From assembly GCA_951406725.2 (NCBI GenBank), contig OX597818.1, positions 71,362,001 through 71,426,000 on the forward strand: a stretch of DNA of 64,000 nt, given 5' to 3'. Source of the DNA: Octopus vulgaris (Eukaryota). Positions 2,498 to 24,155 of this stretch are shown one piece after another (position 1 is the first letter of the stretch; the number at the start of each line of letters is the position of its first letter). Position numbers and translations under genes: made by a program. The notes under the pieces were generated by a model, which did not search any database, was not told where the DNA came from, and saw only the letters and a list, made by a program, of their open reading frames with translations.

Positions 2498-2676
2498 TAC
2501 TGCAAAGATCTGAAACTGGGAAACAAAGAAAGGTACTCTGGTGTGGTGGTTGCTAGTTACCTAGCACACCATGGGACCAACATTTACTGTAAAAACAAAA
2601 GTGGCAGAACACCATTGGACCTAATAAAAAAGAAAAATTTAAAAAAAACGTTAAATATGTTATTCCCACCAACGCC
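2498..2676 (+). CDS. Internal exon of ankyrin/RING (MIB2-like) gene; last ankyrin-like repeat
   Basis: ttgtag acceptor, CC|gtaagt donor; open frame YCKDLKLGNKERYSGVVVASYLAHHGTNIYCKNKSGRTPLDLIKKKNLKKTLNMLFPPTP with ankyrin-type 'L..HG.NI..KNKSGRTPLDL'; phase 0 to phase 2. Confidence 0.85.
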
Positions 2677-5004: not shown

Positions 5005-5040
5005 GCAGAAAGAAGACATTAGTAGTCAATTCGATATAAA
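5005..5040 (+). CDS. 36-bp linker micro-exon of the ankyrin/RING gene
   Basis: Strong acceptor ttccttttcctccag, donor AA|gtaagt; phase 2-2, reads (P)QKEDISSQFDI(K) in frame with both neighbours. Confidence 0.75.
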
Positions 5041-7589: not shown

Positions 7590-7920
7590 AAATTAACAAG
7601 ATTAAAAATCAAATCTCTAAGATTATAAGTATAATGATCATTAACGTTGATTAAATATTAAATTTAGTATTGAACGGTGAACATCTGTTTACATTTTAAG
7701 GATAGGAATTAAATATGAGTTCCCTGTGTGACTTGATCTCACAAATCCTTGTTTGCAACTATATATAATATACACTTATTACATTGTTTGAACAACATTT
7801 ACCATCCATATAGTCATTCTTTTTCTCACTCTTGTTAGATTTTAGATGATATTAATGCTAAAAGAGGCACAGTTTTCTGAGTGTTTCACCCTTTGGTCTT
7901 GATTGTTGCGTTCAAATTAT
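7590..7920 (+). repeat. ~330-bp intronic segment duplicated at about 9225-9590
   Basis: Near-identical direct copies (attaaaaatcaaatctctaaga...ttgattgttgcrttcaaatt). Confidence 0.9.
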
Positions 7921-8293
7921 TTAATGAAAGATAGTCATTGTTATTTGACCAGGAAATGAATTAATCATTAGTATTTGGCAGTGGACTTGGTTATATCTTT
8001 CTTCGTTTGCTCATGGAACTACCATAATATTAGCTGTGCTAAGACACAATCATATTCATAGTAATGAAGGTTATATGTGGAGGGGATACACATAAAGGAC
8101 ATGTCTTTATGGGCTCCGTTTCACTTAATTAGAGAGGAATATTGATTAGTGAATTCTAGTGATGAGAGGACTGTGCCATGCCATAGATTTGGCACAGTTA
8201 TAAGAAAAGAAAGACAAAGCTAAGAGAAAACTGTTATCAAGTTTTAATTAAATGAGATAATTGCAACATTGTTAGGATATTTAATGTGTTTTT

Positions 8294-8360
<67 letters not shown>

Positions 8361-8577
8361 GGATTTAGGAATGTTAGTCTTTTTTATTGTGGACATATTG
8401 AGCTATTACATGGGACCACTGTAGAAAGTACAGAAATATTGACCAAAACCATAATGGTCAACAGTTGACCAGTAACGACAGGAATTGAATGACTCACAAT
8501 AACAAGATAGAGTTTAATAAAAATAAAGATAACGAAAGTTTATTATTAAATGTAAAACTTGGAAATATTTATTTCAG

Positions 8578-8655
8578 GGGCTCCAAAGTTTGAGGACAGG
8601 TGTGTACAAACAGAGGCTACATGTCAGGAATTAGGGGCTGCATCTCAGGCAATAG
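8578..8655 (+). CDS. Repeat exon 1 (78 bp, phase 1-1), LC8-type motif DRCVQTE
   Basis: tatttatttcag acceptor, G|gtgagt donor; (G)APKFEDRCVQTEATCQELGAASQAI in frame after the RING exon. Confidence 0.8.
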
Positions 8656-8906
8656 GTGAGTATAAAATAATAGTTCCCAATTGATTTCTGTAAGGTTTTC
8701 TTCCCCCGAGTATATTGTGCTTGAAAGAATAACTGAAAACAGCTTTCATTCCTATTTTCCAATTGAACGATTATCTGTATAATAATTGAATTAAAGATAT
8801 CGATTTACTGTGAGTTTATGAAATACCCATTGAGGTTAATGCTGTTGGTAATAATGTTCAAATTGGAAGACACAATAGAGTTAATTTTGTCATTTGGTCA
8901 CAGAAC

Positions 8907-9120
8907 TCATCATCATCATCATCATCATCATCATCGTTTAACGTCCGTTTTTATAGTAGCATGGGTTGGACGATTTCACTGGCAAGGCAGTAGGTTGCGC
9001 CAGGCTCCACTGTGATCTGGCAAAGTTTCCACATATGTATGCCATTCCTAATGCCAACCACTCCGAGAGTGTGGTGGGTGCTTTTTACGTGCCACCGACA
9101 CAGGAGCCAGTTGAGCTTGG
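8907..9120 (-). mobile_element. SINE fragment with (CAT)n tail
   Basis: (cat)n-cgtttaacgtccgtttt...gcatgggttggacg tail and tgcc.ttcctaatgccaaccac body; related tail at 1528-1637. Confidence 0.6.
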
Positions 9121-9599
9121 GGCTGGCATTGACCACGTTCGGATGGTGCTTTTTACTTTCCCCCGGCACAGGGAACCAGTCAGGCGGAACTTGCAATAAA
9201 CCACTGAATAACATTGGTATAAATTAAAGAAATTAAAAATCAAATCTCTAAGAGTATAAGTATAATGATCATTAACGTTGATTAAATATTAAATTTAGCA
9301 TTGAACGGTGAACATCTGTTTGCATTTAAACAAAATATTGGTGTTGACATAAAATATAAAGATAGGAATAAAACATGAGTTCCCTGTGTGACTTGATCTC
9401 ACAAATCCTTGTTTGTAACTATATATAATATACACTTATTATATTGTTTGAACAACATTTACCATCCATATAGTCATTCTTTTTCTCACTCTTGTTAGAT
9501 TTTAGATGATATTAATGCTAAAAGAGGCACAGTTTTCTGAGTGTTTCTCCCTATGTTTATAGTTCTGACTTGATTGTTGCATTCAAATTTGACTACTCC

Positions 9600-9850
9600 C
9601 ACAGGTTTAACGTCTTGTTCCCTTCTACTTGGATCTCCTGGCACTTCTTTATCTAACTTTTATCTTCCATACTCCTCCCATATCTCTACATCTCCTCTCT
9701 TGTGCACTAAATCTTCTAAACCCTAGTTTTGCATCCAGCTCATCTCTGCTCCGGGGCTTCAGCACATTAATATTACACTTCTTCTGAAGTATGCTCACTT
9801 CATTTCTTAACAGTTTTCATACATCCTCTATACTCTGTGAAACATTCCAC
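9600..9850 (-). mobile_element. RTE LINE C-terminal fragment
   Basis: Minus strand ..KLLRNEVSIL..CNINV..DELDAKLG..QERR..IKKCQEIQVEG, same region as the 1638-1865 fragment. Confidence 0.55.
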
Positions 9851-9864
9851 TTTACAAATACACA

Positions 9865-10470
9865 TCAGGGTTCACCAACGATCAGTCCTCAGCCCGCTCT
9901 TATTCATTATAGTCCTCCAGGCAATAACAAGCAAATTCCAAGACAGGCTGCCCCTGGGAGCTCCTCTGTGCTGATGACCTTGGTCTAATAGTCGAGTCAA
10001 TGCCAGAACTGGAGACAAAGTTTAGGGTGTGGAAGCAAGGTCTAGAATCGAAGGGCCTTAGGGTTAATATAGCCAAAACCAAAGGCCTGGTAAGTAGGAA
10101 GTTTGAAAATCACAACCCCTTTCAGGTAGACGACCCTGCTCTATCTGTAGAAATGGAAAGGGTAGAAACTCCACACGATGTACCCAGTGTAAGCTATGGA
10201 CGCATAATAAGTGCAGCAATATCAAAGGAAGGTTAACCAGGAAAATAGATTTTGTAAGTGGCAGATGCTCTGGGGCAATAAACACTGTAGATGTACAGAA
10301 AACAGATTACATCACATGTCAGGGGAAGAAACTAATAGTTAATAGCTTCTGCTACCTAGGTGACCAAGTCTGTAGTTGGGATGGTTGCTCTAAGCGTGTA
10401 GCGACTAGAGTAAGAATAGCTGGGTAAAGTTCAGAGAGATGCCGCCTCTGCTGGCAACTAAAGTCCTTCT
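9865..10470 (+). pseudogene. RTE LINE reverse-transcriptase fragment
   Basis: VHQRSVLSPLLFIIVLQAIT / GCPWELLCADDLGLIVESMPELETKFRVWKQGLESKGLRVNIAKTK / FCYLGD: RT domains 4-7 (YADD-like CADD), frameshifted. Confidence 0.9.
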
Positions 10471-10829
10471 TTAAGGTAATAAGTTGTGAACTGAGTAGGT
10501 TTCGGCTACTAATTCTAGCAGATCTCTCTACTACATGGAAATCCCTTTCTTAGTTTGTCTCCCTTGTTGTTAGAGATTAACTGCGGAAATAACGATACAC
10601 TTTGAAATTTCATTTGTTGATGTTGTTGTAAGTCCCATCATCTCCCTAGACACTTCTTCTGCTGTATAGACAAGATTAAAATCATGTGAAATTCTTCCAA
10701 AAATGAAATGTGTAATTCCATTTTGTAAAGCTTGCTTAAAAACATATTTTGCTTTCAAGTAGAACCATCTTGTAGACACAATTGTCAATAAATATATTGT
10801 TTCCATTTCTCGCAGCCAATTTTTTTACA

Positions 10830-13260
10830 TTAGGAGTATTCCATATGAATTCAAACAAAATTTAAAAGGAAGAGACTTTTCACTTGACAGACTCAGATAG
10901 GTTTTGGTAATACCTCTATATGCATAAGGAACACATGTATAATTTTAGTGTTCAACCACAAAGGGTTTCAATGATATGCCCTACAAAACATTGGGGGCCA
11001 CACCCCTCGTGGAGCGCGAATGTCAATTTATACGATTTTGGTGCTGAACGCTTTTAAAACTATTCATATTTGTCTGAAATTGGCTACAGCGTGTAATCTG
11101 CAATCAGATCGGCCAGAATCTGCTATCAGAATTCCTCTATTATCTTCCTCCATATTAACGGTAATGGCCTTTCAAATAAGAACATTTTCATGGGCAGAAA
11201 GTTTTTAAAATATCAATATTCAAGGGACCCCCATTGGGACATGATGTAATACAAGAAAACATGTGGTGTGTTTTTTCGCTTTGAGGATTGATCTGTCCAT
11301 GGTAAGCATACTGATAATGCTCAAGACATAATATAACATTTAGAGGCTCTTGAAAATGGCTCAGGGTGAAAAAATAACATTGTTGACAATTTTCGATTCC
11401 TACACTTCACCATGTGAACAATTAAACAAGGGAATGTAACTTGGACTCCAGGAATGCATTTATCCAAACTTTATTCGTTCAAACATTCAATTTATTTTCT
11501 CATCTCCTCCTCGGTTGTTCATTCACTTTCCAAATGATATGGAAAATAATTGGATCAAGTCCGATGGTGCGCAAATGGTGCCCTCTAATAGCCTCATGCA
11601 TACACACACCTTCATTATTTGTAATGAATTTCATACCCCCTAGTGACATTCACCTGCACACTTTTGGTGTGTATGCGCAATAGTCCTCTAAATCCAAAAT
11701 ATTGACACCCATCAATACAGAAATGTATGGTAAGCATTTTGTATTCACTTTTACTCCGTATTTTGGCGACATTGAATATAAATTTCGAAGAGGCACCAAT
11801 GCGCATTATTAACCTTTGTGCCAGTAATTTGGTCACGGAAATAATTTACTGGAACCTTTGATTTAAGTGATCATATGGTGCAGAAATCACAGTAACTGAG
11901 CAAAGAAGAGGCTATTTTGGCTCATCCTGACCCAAGGAAAGGTACGTCCCGGGACGTCAGAATCGGAGGAATATTCACGTATTTGTCCAGCTAAAAAGGA
12001 AATTGTTACTGTAATTGAGAACGGATTAAAAGCCCAACGACTAAAATAGCCATTGCTTGTGAATCTTCAGAAGTTTTGTGTGGAATACAAGGAAAACGCT
12101 GGATATAATAAGGTAGATTTTTGTAAGTTTATGAATTGCAACTGAAATGAACGGATAATACAATTGTATGAGTCGGAGGAATATTCGCTTCTTTGTGACT
12201 TGCAACCAAAATGCTGTGTTCAAGTTACTACCCCAGGCACGCATTCAGTATGTGTCTGTGAGAATCACCAACATGCAAAACGTATCGACGCTGCCATTCC
12301 TGGTAGTCACGACTACACAGACTTGCTTGGCAAAATGGTCTCTTCCGTGAGCAATCGAGATTGTATGTTGCTCCTATGTGAGTCCTGTCCTTTTGAACAA
12401 CGTTTATTAGACGTATTTTAATCACTTGGAGGTTTAGTAACGCACAAACAGTTGGCACATGTGTACTGGCCAGCTCCTTTATGACTAACTTCCCCCCAGT
12501 GAATGCCTTCATTCAAACCGCTGAAAGTGTGTTTGAATCTCTACAACAACTTCGTTTCATAGTAGAGGCCCGATCTTATTTCCTTAATCATCAAAAAGAT
12601 GACCTGACATCAAGTGAAGCAATAGTATTGTTGGACTTCACAGAATAAAATTATAACTTTGTAGTACAGGACGCCCTGCAAGGGTTTCATCAGAACAAAT
12701 CCGAGGCAAATATTAATCCATTCGCGATCTCTTATAAGACTGGTTCAAACCCACAATGCACTTCAATCTGTGTCATATCTTCTTTTTTGAAACGTGACAA
12801 CCCCATAGTGCATGCTTTTATTACGAGGGTGATATCGCATATAATGACAGAACTTCCATTCATAAACCATCTCCTGTACTTCAGTGACGGTGCAGCCGAC
12901 CAATACAAGAACTAGAGACACCAAACAGATCTCTGTCATCATCAGAATGATCAAGGACTTGCAGCAGAGTGGCATTTTTCTCCATGTCATGTGCGAAAAA
13001 GTTTACAAGGAGCCACAGAAAGACATTTTCTCACGGATTACGAGGTGTGTAGCTGAGTATGTGCAAGCATTCCAGGAATAATGTTCTTTTACGTCTGAAA
13101 TGAAAACAGTAGCGCAGTGAAATTAATTGGCACAAGATCCCATCACTGCTTCATTCTTTCTTCAAGATCTGATCTTCTAATGAAAAGAATATCAGCCGAT
13201 GACAATTTCACTCTTTTAGGTGAGGAGCAGCCAGCATCTGATTAAAATATTTCAAAGTTA
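10830..13260 (+). mobile_element. Decayed DNA transposon, transposase probably Sola2-like
   Basis: LQPKCCV..GTHSVCVCENHQ..NRDCMLLLCESCP (12190-12390), AIVLLDFTE..NYNFVVQDALQGFH (12620-12690), YFSDGAADQYKN (12877-12912), GLAAEWHF; many stops and frameshifts; outer limits approximate. Confidence 0.7.
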
Positions 13261-13775
13261 CAATCCTGAAAATATGTTGGATACATGAATGAAAATGTTT
13301 AACAAGGAGATCAAGTGAGCAGGTTTATACTACGTGAAGTGCCTGTCATGTGTTTATGGTAAGATCATTGATGACCAAACTGGTTGCCATCAGAATTAAG
13401 CAAAAATGAGAATAATGTTGGATAGAGAAGGGCAGAAGTGAGGGCACAATTTCACGTCATATGTTTAGTGCAGATATAAGAAAGGAAAGACAAACCTAAT
13501 CAAAGATTGGTGTTATCAAGTGTTAATTAAATGAAATAATGACACAGTTGTTAGATTATGTAGAATGTCTTAAGAGATAAAAGAAATTTTGGAAGGCAGT
13601 GTAAATATTAAACTATTACATGGTAATCCTGTTCAAACTATAAACATTCTAACCAAACCCATTGTCTTCAACAGTTGATCATCGATCACAGGAATCCCTG
13701 ATATAAAATATAGATTATCAATAAATATAAAGAAATTTTTCTATAATGTTTGAAACTTGGAAATATTTATTTCAG

Positions 13776-13826
13776 AGAATCGAACGTTCAAAGACAAAGA
13801 AACACAGACACAGGAAGAACCTGTTG
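13776..13826 (+). CDS. Repeat exon 2 (51 bp, phase 1-1), LC8-type motif DKETQT
   Basis: Same splice flanks as repeat exon 1 (acttggaaatatttatttcag / gtgagtataaaataa); (E)NRTFKDKETQTQEEPV. Confidence 0.8.
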
Positions 13827-14171
13827 GTGAGTATAAAATAACAGCACTTAATTGATTTCTGTAAAGTATATCCTCTGCTTATTTTGATATCAGAATGATA
13901 AAGAGCAGCTTCCATTCTTACCTTTCAATGGGAAGTTTTAGCTGTAAACTAATCATATTAAACATATCGATACTATTGACATTTAATAAAGTATCCAATC
14001 AGGTTAGCACGGTTGGTGAAATGGATAAATTAGAAGCGAAATAGATTTCAGGTTCTCTTTTGGAACAGCCAAATATTAAATGTTGTGGTTTAACAGGTGA
14101 AGTAATGACAAAGGTTTTGTTTGTTTTATATTTTTAAAATGTTTACTGACAAGTTATTGTTGTTATTTTAG

Positions 14172-14206
14172 CTGATGTCGCTCATAATCCGGCAGACTTA
14201 CAATGA
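14172..14206 (+). CDS. Candidate terminal coding exon
   Basis: ttgttgttattttag acceptor, phase 1, (A)DVAHNPADLQ*; AATAAA at 14248-14253. Confidence 0.5.
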
Positions 14207-16341
14207 AATGCGTTCCAAATATGAACACCCTGTCGTTTTTCACGGATAATAAATCTATCATTGCATCCAGTAAACATTGTTTTTATTCAAGTGGAAGACG
14301 TTGGTTTGCTGCTCAGAAAACCGTTGTCTCTTTCCCTTTCTTCAAACTTCATAAAGGCTCTATGATACCATACAATCAAATACATTCAAAGAGACATCGG
14401 GCGGGTTGAAAGAAGAAAGGATAGTGAACACTTTAAATTGCAGATCCTTAAGAACCCTTCGTACAGTACTAACATTCCTGCTCATGTTTGGTTTGAAATG
14501 TCCAATGAAACCAGTAATCAAATATTTCAGCTTTGCGAAGAAACAAGTATAAAGCTTAGTGAAGAAGGCAAGAACGGAGATTGCAACGGGAGGTGATTGT
14601 GTACCATAGAACGTGTACAAATGTTGTGCCCAGTTGTTATAAGCATTAATTAGTATTTAGGGAGTTGTGGGATAAAGATGAACTGATTGATGAATGGTGC
14701 AAGACAAAAGGATTTTATTCATCAAAGTAAGTTAATGCAGAACTAAGTGGCCAATTGAAGCCAATTTCAATCTTGAATGGCAAGATTTAATAGGCTGTAC
14801 TTGCTAAGAGATCAGCTACATGTCAGCAAAATAATGGTTATATGACAGAAAATATCCAGAAGACTAGAATCCGGAGAATGTCTGTGTGTGTAGAACATGC
14901 ATTTTAAATCTGGGATGCCATATAAAAAGCAAAGAAGAATAAAAGAGATTCGGATGTAGTATGGCTTGATCTGGCTAATGCTTATTGTTCTGTACCACAC
15001 ATATTGTTGATGGAAACAAGGAATTTCTTTAATAAATGGGAGGAGATTAAGGATCTGATGAGGAGATGCTATAACAGTTTCAAAATGTGTTTCATAGGAT
15101 AAAATTTCACAAAAGACTGCCAGGTTCTGGATCTGGAATAGCTGTAGGTTGCACAATATCAGTTGGTTGGTGATCTTTATAGTTTTGCTACTTAGATTAA
15201 CAGAATGTCCAGAAGAAATTGCTCAACGGAAAGATATTCATGGCTTACATAACAATACTAACAAGAGACTAAAAGGATATGCAAATAGTTCTGGTTAGTA
15301 GACTCAATAGAGTTAGTACTTAGTCAAGAATGTGGTTTCAAACAAATAAGTAATGCAGTCTATAATTTGTGAGAGGTCAGCTGGAGCAAGGGAAGTTACG
15401 AACGGCAGGAGAACTCATACCAAAAGTTAAAGACAAACCAAAAGTTAAAGATGGTGGTACGTTATCTTGTTGACTGATACATACTGGGGTAGTGAGACCA
15501 TGGCAAAGCTGAAGATGGACAGAAAACAACTGATAATTCAAAACTACTAAAAAAATGCAAAATTTCATGTTTCCAGTTCGATTTTGTTTATATATTCTTC
15601 AGAATAAATTGTTAATTCTCAATTTGGATATAACCCCTTTGTAATAATGTGTACATGAACAGTTATTTTGTAGTTAAGTAGGTTTTGTACAAATGTACAG
15701 TGTTCCAGGATACCTGTTATCGCTTACCTCTCCACCTGTGTAGAACTAATCATTGCTCACCTGAAAAAAAGTCGCTTATTAAGGAGGATGATTGACATTT
15801 CCTTAATCAGATTATATTCTGATGAAGTGTGATGTGGGCAGTTAAAATTAAAGATAGCCAACAGTGACCTTTAAAAAAGAGAGCGGGTTTATGTTTATCC
15901 GACCTGAAACAATGTGTCATGGTCCGACTTTTGAGGACCAATTTGGTTGTCATGGAATTAAGTAGAAAGCTAGAAGAATGTTGATTAGTGAAGTCTAGAG
16001 ATGAGAGGACAATCATGTCATAGATAAGATTAAATATAAGAAAGAGATTAGCAGTGTTAACAAGTGATTATTAAATGAGATAAGTGCAATGTTGTTAGAT
16101 TATGTAGGATGTCTTAATAGAGAGAGGAGATTGAGGAAGGTCAGTCTATTTAGTTGTAGACTTATATATTGGGCTATTACACGGTCCCTTGGTAGAGAGT
16201 ATAAAAATGCTGACCAAAGCCATAATACTCACCAGTTGACCATTGATTACATGAATATCTCACAATAATAAAATACAGAATTATTAATAAAGAATAATAA
16301 GTTTTACTATGAAGTGTAAAACTTGGAAATGTTTATTTCAG

Positions 16342-16392
16342 TGCGTCCAAAGTTTAAAGGGAAAGCATCCCAGAGAGTGGCAGAGCCAGTTG
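16342..16392 (+). CDS. Repeat exon 3 (51 bp, phase 1-1), degenerate motif GKASQR
   Basis: acttggaaatgtttatttcag / gtgagtataaaataa flanks; (V)RPKFKGKASQRVAEPV; lies just before the N gap. Confidence 0.65.
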
Positions 16393-16411
16393 GTGAGTAT
16401 AAAATAACTGT

Positions 16412-16511
16412 NNNNNNNNNNNNNNNNNNNNNNNNNNNNNNNNNNNNNNNNNNNNNNNNNNNNNNNNNNNNNNNNNNNNNNNNNNNNNNNNNNNNNNNNN
16501 NNNNNNNNNNN
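16412..16511. other. Assembly gap (100 N)
   Basis: Exactly 100 Ns; sequence composition changes abruptly across it. Confidence 1.
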
Positions 16512-23343: not shown

Positions 23344-23445
23344 CATAAATACATGCATGCATATATAAATACATACATACACACCTACCTGCATACATAC
23401 ACACCTACTTACCTACCTACATACATGCGCACACATACATACACC

Positions 23446-24155
23446 TGATGCACAAAAGGGATAGAGATGCAGGTAAAGCCGTAAAGTGTAACGACAGATG
23501 CAGACTTTGTGGAGTTCACACTGAAGATATCACCCACATCATAAGCAGTTGTTCGAAAATGTCCTCACGGTATTATCTACCGATGAGACATGGCGTTGTA
23601 GCTAGGACATTCTATAATGAAATCCGTCGGAAGGATAATCCCGAGGACAAAGAAATAAGAACCAGCAATATGGCAGAAGCCATAGCTACTAGTAATAAAA
23701 AGGAATACTGGTGGAATGTACCAGTGAAGACCTCAATGAAAGTTAAGCACAACAGACCTGATATAATGATTTGGGATAGAGAAGAGAAACTGTGCACAGT
23801 TGTGGAAATTAGCTGCCCAGCGGATGTTAACATAAAGCTGAAGATCAGTGAAAAAGAGAACACCGATGCTGGACTATTGAGAAATCTGAAGTTACTCTAT
23901 CCAGATTACAAGTTCAGGTTTATACCTGTAATTATTGGGGCCCTGGGATCACCCTGCCTAATTACCAATCTTGATAAATTAGGCTTCTCAAAACCAGAAA
24001 GGAGAAAGCTAATTCGAAGACTACAGATCCAATCCTTCACTGGAACTGTAAAAATTTGTAAAACTTCCCAGAAGTTTATCATTCAAATATATATGAGCAT
24101 GTCTAGGTATGCAACGATACGCATGAGAAGACATACATAAAGCATACACATCTGC
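23446..24155 (+). mobile_element. 5'-truncated R4/Dong/NeSL-type LINE: CCHC knuckle plus restriction-like endonuclease
   Basis: ORF 23448-24140: CRLCGVHTEDITHIISSC, RH, NRPDIMIWD..VVEISCP, EKEN, IPVIIGALG. Confidence 0.92.

Follow-up and report, generated by a model that had tools for sequence, protein, structure and literature searches.

In a 64,000-nucleotide stretch of the Octopus vulgaris genome (contig OX597818.1, positions 71,362,001 to 71,426,000, forward strand; hereafter the window), a gene of an ankyrin-RING family carries three mini-exons, A, B and C, which are almost certainly diverged duplicates of the symmetric phase-1 first exon of the Death domain encoded by its relatives, as judged from intron and exon alignments. 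The linker formed by the duplicates is predicted to be disordered, and its K-x-[VT]-Q-T motifs are likely binding sites for the LC8 dimer; we lean towards this overall reading. The Death-exon origin is well supported and a role for LC8 is plausible, while tuning of valency by exon number is unproven. The mini-exons and the duplicated units that contain them are as follows.

8133..8897, + strand: duplicated unit 1 (mini-exon A with its intron flanks), homologous to units 2 and 3 and to the flanks of the paralogues' Death exon 1
8578..8655, + strand: mini-exon A, 78 nt, phase 1-1, D-R-C-V-Q-T-E, fits the loose LC8 motif
13298..14063, + strand: duplicated unit 2, around mini-exon B
13776..13826, + strand: mini-exon B, 51 nt, phase 1-1, D-K-E-T-Q-T-Q, best match to the K-x-T-Q-T class
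15870..16408, + strand: duplicated unit 3, around mini-exon C, interrupted by an assembly gap
16342..16392, + strand: mini-exon C, 51 nt, phase 1-1, G-K-A-S-Q-R-V, anchor broken

Tandem duplication and relationship to the first Death-domain exon

The positions, phases, splice ends, flanks and peptides of the three exons are as the initial annotation gave them. All have AG/GT ends, lengths divisible by three and an open frame, which confirms their proposed nature as in-frame cassettes. Tandem duplication, suggested earlier from common splice flanks and homologous introns, is borne out by blocks of 460-570 bp around the three exons that share 65-68% identity (E 5e-43 to 4e-70). Both flank motifs occur together at only three places in the window, which are mini-exons A, B and C.

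A search pattern built from the splice flanks only and run genome-wide gave 150 matches, against 0 for the reversed pattern used as control, and recovered mini-exons and the 72-nt Death exon 1 alike. The window introns, with splice-proximal bases removed, align with Death-exon introns at 63-74% identity over about 340-450 bp (E to 1e-61). Over their first 41 nt, compared without gaps to the best Death exon 1, the exons match at 25/41 (A), 24/41 (B) and 27/41 (C) nucleotides, with shuffles at about 14.5-15. This register places Death E-K-D-L-L-R-V or E-K-H-L-H-R-V opposite mini-exon D-K-E-V-Q-T-V, and the common Death codons at positions -1, 0 and +1 (CTT, CTG or CAT, AGA) each lie one base from codons for V, Q and T, such that three single-base changes would convert L-L/H-R into V-Q-T. 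The 72-nt length of the Death exon is retained by four mini-exons. Since the Death domain is an ancient fold, the Death exon is inferred to be the parent and the mini-exons to be derived. In a tree of the flanks mini-exons and Death exons are intermixed, and a single origin is weakly rejected (approximately unbiased test, p 0.041, 31 vs 13 rows, 2 long rows left out); this would be compatible with repeated origin of the mini-exons as well as with gene conversion.

Tandem duplicated exons with alternative splicing offer a parallel, being likewise symmetric exons copied along with their intron flanks. In contrast to that system, where a copy takes the place of the parent exon, the octopus copies were added in series and have lost the fold of their parent. 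There are precedents for multivalent LC8 linkers and for tandem exon duplication; no account of an LC8 motif that originated by duplication of a domain exon was found in the open literature.

Family architecture and the RING-to-Death linker

Family members follow the layout ankyrin-RING-linker-Death, and protein P0013 has exons A, B and C in order, followed by the Death domain. Because the relatives place them between RING and Death domain, the mini-exons encode a linker, predicted to be disordered, and not the protein tail that had been assumed. The Pfam Death profile (PF00531) scores above cut-off in P0041 and P0039 and below it in P0029, P0037, P0013 and P0005, with no match in P0012 and P0006. 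An AlphaFold2 model of P0041 from a 32-row alignment comprises a folded RING, then residues 205-264 with a predicted local distance difference test (pLDDT) score <50 and without secondary structure, and finally a six-helix domain at a pLDDT of about 90; a single-sequence AlphaFold run on the same protein gave a pLDDT of 46. A fold search returned mostly ankyrin matches, with no Death domain among those listed.

In the window's own genome (G000) the RING exon region has at least 41 matches and the exon B unit at least 42, mostly in C29 and C31. Among the database matches listed (at least 120 of 459 in one search), those with RING plus Death are all named Octopus, and no description of this octopus ankyrin-RING-Death family was found in the open literature.

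Database relatives are Octopus proteins named 'MIB2-like', and the window gene had been taken for a MIB2-like ligase. This identity was not upheld: Pfam scans of nine family proteins and the precomputed Pfam lists of the named matches contain no MIB/HERC2 or ZZ domain, and the family therefore does not belong to the Mind bomb proteins proper. Both MIB1 and MIB2 share with it ankyrin repeats followed by a zf-C3HC4_3 RING, and the MIB1 ankyrin structure (8v0e) gave one long match (profile 21-212, E 5e-38) and ranked third in the fold search. However, the octopus family has one RING followed by linker and Death domain, while Mind bomb proteins have two or three C-terminal RINGs. According to excerpts of bioRxiv 10.1101/2024.03.01.582834, MIB1 dimerises via a coiled coil next to RING3, a dimer element not seen in the predicted model of P0041. 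Two O. bimaculoides relatives, P0065 and P0080, end in ankyrin-RING-RING without a Death domain, possibly an ancestral MIB2-like state. At locus L129 (G000:C31:772001-782000) a family RING-Death gene is preceded by a long array of near-identical ankyrin repeats contained in a single exon.

LC8-like motifs in the linker

Relative to the LC8 consensus [D/S]-K-x-[T/V/I]-Q-[T/V]-[D/E] (as given in part of PMC3078936), exons A and B match the loose form and miss the strict form at one position each, whereas exon C fits neither. By the position rules in the portion of PMC6607443 that sets them out, the anchors of A and B are acceptable, with position -3 large and position -4 polar, and exon C has a charged residue at +1, listed there as a non-binding anchor. 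The TQT-type motif ascribed to all three exons thus stands for exon A (VQT) and exon B (TQT) and falls for exon C (SQR). In the exon C type at large, S-Q-T is present in 8/15 listed copies. The loose motif K/R-x-[TVI]-Q-[TV] arises in 0.2-0.4% of base-shuffled versions of each window exon.

Across the family, 82 distinct mini-exon copies were collected from fetched loci, after exclusion of two spurious L111 matches, five 36-nt deletion copies, one false-donor match and two out-of-register Death exons. Q occupies position 0 in 60 of the 82 and is followed by T in 47; among exact-pattern 51-nt exons, counted by eye, Q-T is found in 33/42. In the 64 proteins parsed out of 126, 56 loose motifs fall within the 2,550 linker residues and 2 within the remaining 22,274, the copies not being independent, and each protein model carries 0 to 3. 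The O. bimaculoides model P0131 has V-Q-T in 4/5 diverged mini-exons. The octopus genome encodes an LC8 (G000:C25, locus L091) identical to DYNLL2 at 83/89 residues, so that its groove should read the usual motifs, and LC8 would probably bind the best mini-exon motifs in context.

The linkers vary widely among loci. At L114-L117 (G000:C30:19.16-19.20 Mb) at least 8 mini-exons of 54 nt, spaced by ~2.8 kb, are without an LC8-like anchor. Tandem units of 166 bp in C29, several per gene, mix V-Q-T, V-Q-A, V-K-T and 15-nt-deleted forms; loci L135, L140, L144 and L122 (G000:C29, 21-29.6 Mb) hold such units and represent the most dynamic linker lineage seen.

Constraint on the motif positions

As the copies are not independent, constraint was estimated on a tree from the introns alone (the flanks), with our own codon model applied to the first 13 codons and branches capped at 0.25. 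For a type-level test, one random copy was drawn from each of 20 diverged mini-exon types, in 10 draws, with positions -4, -3, -1, 0, +1 and +2 as the consensus set. Omega was 0.59 at these six positions and 1.05 elsewhere (median p 0.003, range 0.0004-0.016), and Q-T alone gave 0.38 vs 0.89 (p 0.016), which agrees, between diverged types, with the expectation that the Q-T core is kept more than its flanks. Per column, omega was lowest at -3 and 0 (0.33), followed by +1, -1 and -4, and reached 0.98 at position -2, which is free in LC8 clients.

The same six positions in 13 Death-exon types gave 0.85 vs 1.19 (p 0.18), with positions 0/+1 running fast (omega 1.89). Since the mini-exon types are slow at the consensus positions and the Death-exon types are not, constraint appears, under this codon model, to have shifted after duplication towards an LC8-like pattern. 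In Death exon 1 itself, omega at positions 0/+1, which lie on the surface of helix 1, is about 1.9-2.3 between types and hints at diversifying selection.

Splicing and isoform models

Contigs of the family occur in sequencing runs whose RNA nature was guessed, none being on record as RNA. A GT-AG junction links the RING exon to exon A in three of four runs (X1, X2, X6), and X7 has variant joins; the RNA-like contigs also contain A-to-A joins and one A-type-to-B join. Exon C is joined to Death exon 1 in two of four runs (X3, X10) and to another exon C in X1. The joints 13826>16342 and 13826>14172 do not occur among the 15 of 24 joints listed. At 85% likeness, the splicing evidence from these contigs applies at the level of the family: inclusion of spliced mini-exons, as annotated initially, is seen there for RING-to-A and A-type-to-B joins, and the two specific joints expected downstream of exon B are missing from those listed.

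In annotated models, isoforms from the same locus differ from each other by entire mini-exons (375, 358, 349 and 332 amino acids at one, 563, 545 and 528 at another), and the number of motifs therefore changes in frame.

Proposed mechanism and alternatives

LC8 dimers hold two chains parallel and bivalency sharply raises affinity (as described in part of PMC3078936). An LC8 dimer seated on the octopus linker would pair two chains, bringing their RING and Death domains together. It would thereby replace a dimerisation element of the coiled-coil type, as in MIB1, and set the RING-to-Death spacing. Under this scheme the family may possess dimer-dependent ubiquitin-ligase activity, exon number and skipping could tune avidity or linker stiffness, and the family could conceivably act in death-domain signalling of the innate immune or cell-death kind; that exon count tunes activity in vivo is a tentative proposal. 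Put most fully, the linker would be a splice-tunable LC8 zipper, in which duplicated Death helix 1 gained its motif via about three point changes, possibly repeatedly, and exon gain, loss and skipping set the tightness of RING/Death dimerisation; this extended version is speculative.

Multivalent LC8 clients such as ASCIZ, KANK1 and 53BP1 also carry several motifs in a disordered stretch, disorder being predicted here. Nup159 is a further multivalent LC8 client. In contrast to these, the octopus motif comes one per symmetric exon, the exon descends from the helix of a folded domain, and the motif count varies among paralogues and isoform models. With a period of 17 residues in the octopus linker, successive motifs would be separated by roughly 7-9 residues, close to the linkers of 6-9 residues that give homogeneous duplexes in the portion of PMC10046861 concerned, and an excerpt on KANK1 (10.1101/2025.07.16.665182) reports that weak LC8 sites can cooperate.

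Several observations weigh against the LC8 reading. The loose motif is present in 41/82 copies and the strict one in 6/82, and no loose motif occurs in 29/64 parsed proteins. The C30 lineage (8 listed copies) is motif-less, three sequences read A-K-M-M, many C29 copies have K for Q, and the motif is deleted in 5 further C29 sequences. Anchor-containing peptides often fail, with 31/53 synthesised peptides non-binding in the section of PMC6607443 that lists them. Among the 20 types codon +2 is unconstrained (omega 1.37). A smaller first sample of 19 types had given a stronger contrast (0.52 vs 1.12, p 4e-4), which weakened once C29 lineages were added; parsimony on all 59 copies of that first sample found only K-3 significant (Q p 0.17, T p 0.48). 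The codon model is home-made, and gene conversion can distort the test (scale 1.8 on all copies). The RNA nature of the runs used for splicing is a guess, and their contigs, at a likeness of 85%, are not assignable to the window copy.

Over all 82 copies the preferential conservation of Q-T disappears (omega 0.71 vs 0.73 for the rest, p 0.92), whereas the strongest constraint falls on K/R at -3 (omega 0.13, p 4e-5), which the mini-exons inherited from the Death exon. This contrast favours an alternative in which the linker is a tolerated spacer, the D/E-K core reflecting a purine-rich splicing enhancer of a small exon together with inheritance from the Death helix, and Q-T a by-product of an early mutation spread by duplication. 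It agrees with the silent AAA/AAG changes at K -3 and with the commonest loss, CAG to AAG (19/82), all of which keep purines, and with the existence of motif-less lineages and linker-less genes. Nevertheless, between types the least-changed columns (0, -3, -1, +1, -4) are five of the six consensus positions named beforehand, Q alternates between CAA and CAG (25 and 35 copies), and the Death exon, likewise small, is unconstrained at -4/-3 (0.95 vs 1.09), and we regard a mere spacer as rather unlikely. The linker motif might also be selected at the protein level for another partner or modification, for instance with the lysine at -3 as a ubiquitin acceptor next to the RING or S/T-Q as kinase sites. 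K/R at -3 is indeed the most constrained column at type level and over all copies, and some copies contain TQ or SQ. Most types, however, have V rather than S/T before Q, R is tolerated at -3 in type A (15 copies), which fits LC8 and not ubiquitination, and many other linker lysines change freely, making this explanation improbable. For LC8 binding, the opposite outcomes between diverged types and over all copies would fit a birth-and-death process, with old types retaining the motif and young copies losing it freely.

State of the window copy

The start exon of the window gene, which holds the start codon, lies about 20.4 kb upstream of the window and is of ankyrin type, as in the paralogues. 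In the next coding exon, ~14.2 kb upstream of the window, an in-frame TAA stands in place of the Glu codon of the paralogues, and the two ends of this exon differ in phase. Downstream, the sequence is broken shortly after exon C, and the short exon formerly proposed as terminal is placed before it.

14172..14206, + strand: terminal exon proposed earlier, unsupported and probably intronic
16412..16511, no strand: assembly gap of 100 N, starting 19 nt after exon C

A locus in C31 shares 90-95% identity with the window from 2 to 16.4 kb and continues into a second exon C and two Death exons. The two Death exons of the 94-95% identical paralogue are absent from the 107 kb beyond the window's exon C, and among the 40 of 70 candidates that were scored the matching Death exon is located at only two places, both in C31. 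Database model P0001 maps to the window locus, with full identity over the RING exon, and omits the mini-exons. Because of the in-frame stop in the upstream ankyrin exon and the lack of a Death exon after the gap, the window copy is rather likely, from its sequence, to be a pseudogene or truncated duplicate, with an assembly break as an alternative; it is likely a non-functional segmental duplicate. Several paralogues also have frameshifted or stop-bearing Death exons or mini-exons (L049:7180, L057:4964, L086:1519, L125, L056:1250, L018:1677), and many family members look like pseudogenes.

If the window copy were instead intact and expressed, it would end in a motif-bearing tail with its stop in 14172-14206. 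This copy does have the AG at 14170-14171, beyond which an in-frame stop follows after 10 codons, and the upstream TAA might be an allele or base error. Against this, that TAA falls in the second coding exon, which is not symmetric, the 94-95% identical paralogue runs via exon C into Death exons, and the terminal exon itself was not sustained: beyond the absence of its joint among those listed, a contig passes unspliced through the site, and the AG is missing in 16/26 distinct site copies, the window copy counted among the 26. An intact gene ending in this way is therefore very improbable.

Upstream exons, RING and other features of the window

The remaining exons of the gene within the window lie upstream of the mini-exons.

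2498..2676, + strand: last ankyrin-region exon, phase 0-2, earlier exons being upstream of the window
5005..5040, + strand: 36-nt exon between ankyrin region and RING, phase 2-2, used in database model P0002
7169..7311, + strand: RING exon, Pfam zf-C3HC4_3, 37.8 bits (cut-off 27)
7668..7699, + strand: possible alternative last exon, used by database model P0002, a candidate from that model only

Of the eight zinc ligands of an active RING ligase, the window RING retains seven Cys and has Asp in place of His, and it carries Arg after the last Cys pair; the Asp replacement marks 16/101 parsed family RINGs, the window's subfamily. The nearest solved structures are the RINGs of cIAP1/2 and XIAP (E 1e-4 to 4e-3), ligases whose activity depends on dimerisation and which are linked to death-domain signalling. 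Unlike them, the octopus family is without BIR domains, its RING is internal, and the His ligand is Asp in the window's subfamily. An intronic duplication of 85% identity (7590-7918 and 9221-9589) includes, in its first copy, the candidate last exon 7668-7699. Open stretches at 9928-10424, 23349-24137 and 50726-51010 have the look of transposon remnants, which we take to be of LINE (long interspersed nuclear element) and mariner type.

Significance

The birth of short linear motifs is usually inferred, since the ancestral sequence is lost. Here the parent Death exon 1 and dozens of its descendants coexist with alignable introns, which makes it possible to read the path from helix to motif and the change in constrained positions, and to test them with peptides. 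If the proposal is true, it would provide a traceable case of a linear motif born from the exon of a folded domain; if LC8 does not bind, the family would still be a well-documented instance of a domain exon recycled into a variable-length linker. The large, fast-evolving octopus RING-Death family, mislabelled as Mind bomb in databases, is also a candidate contributor to innate immune or cell-death signalling in cephalopods.

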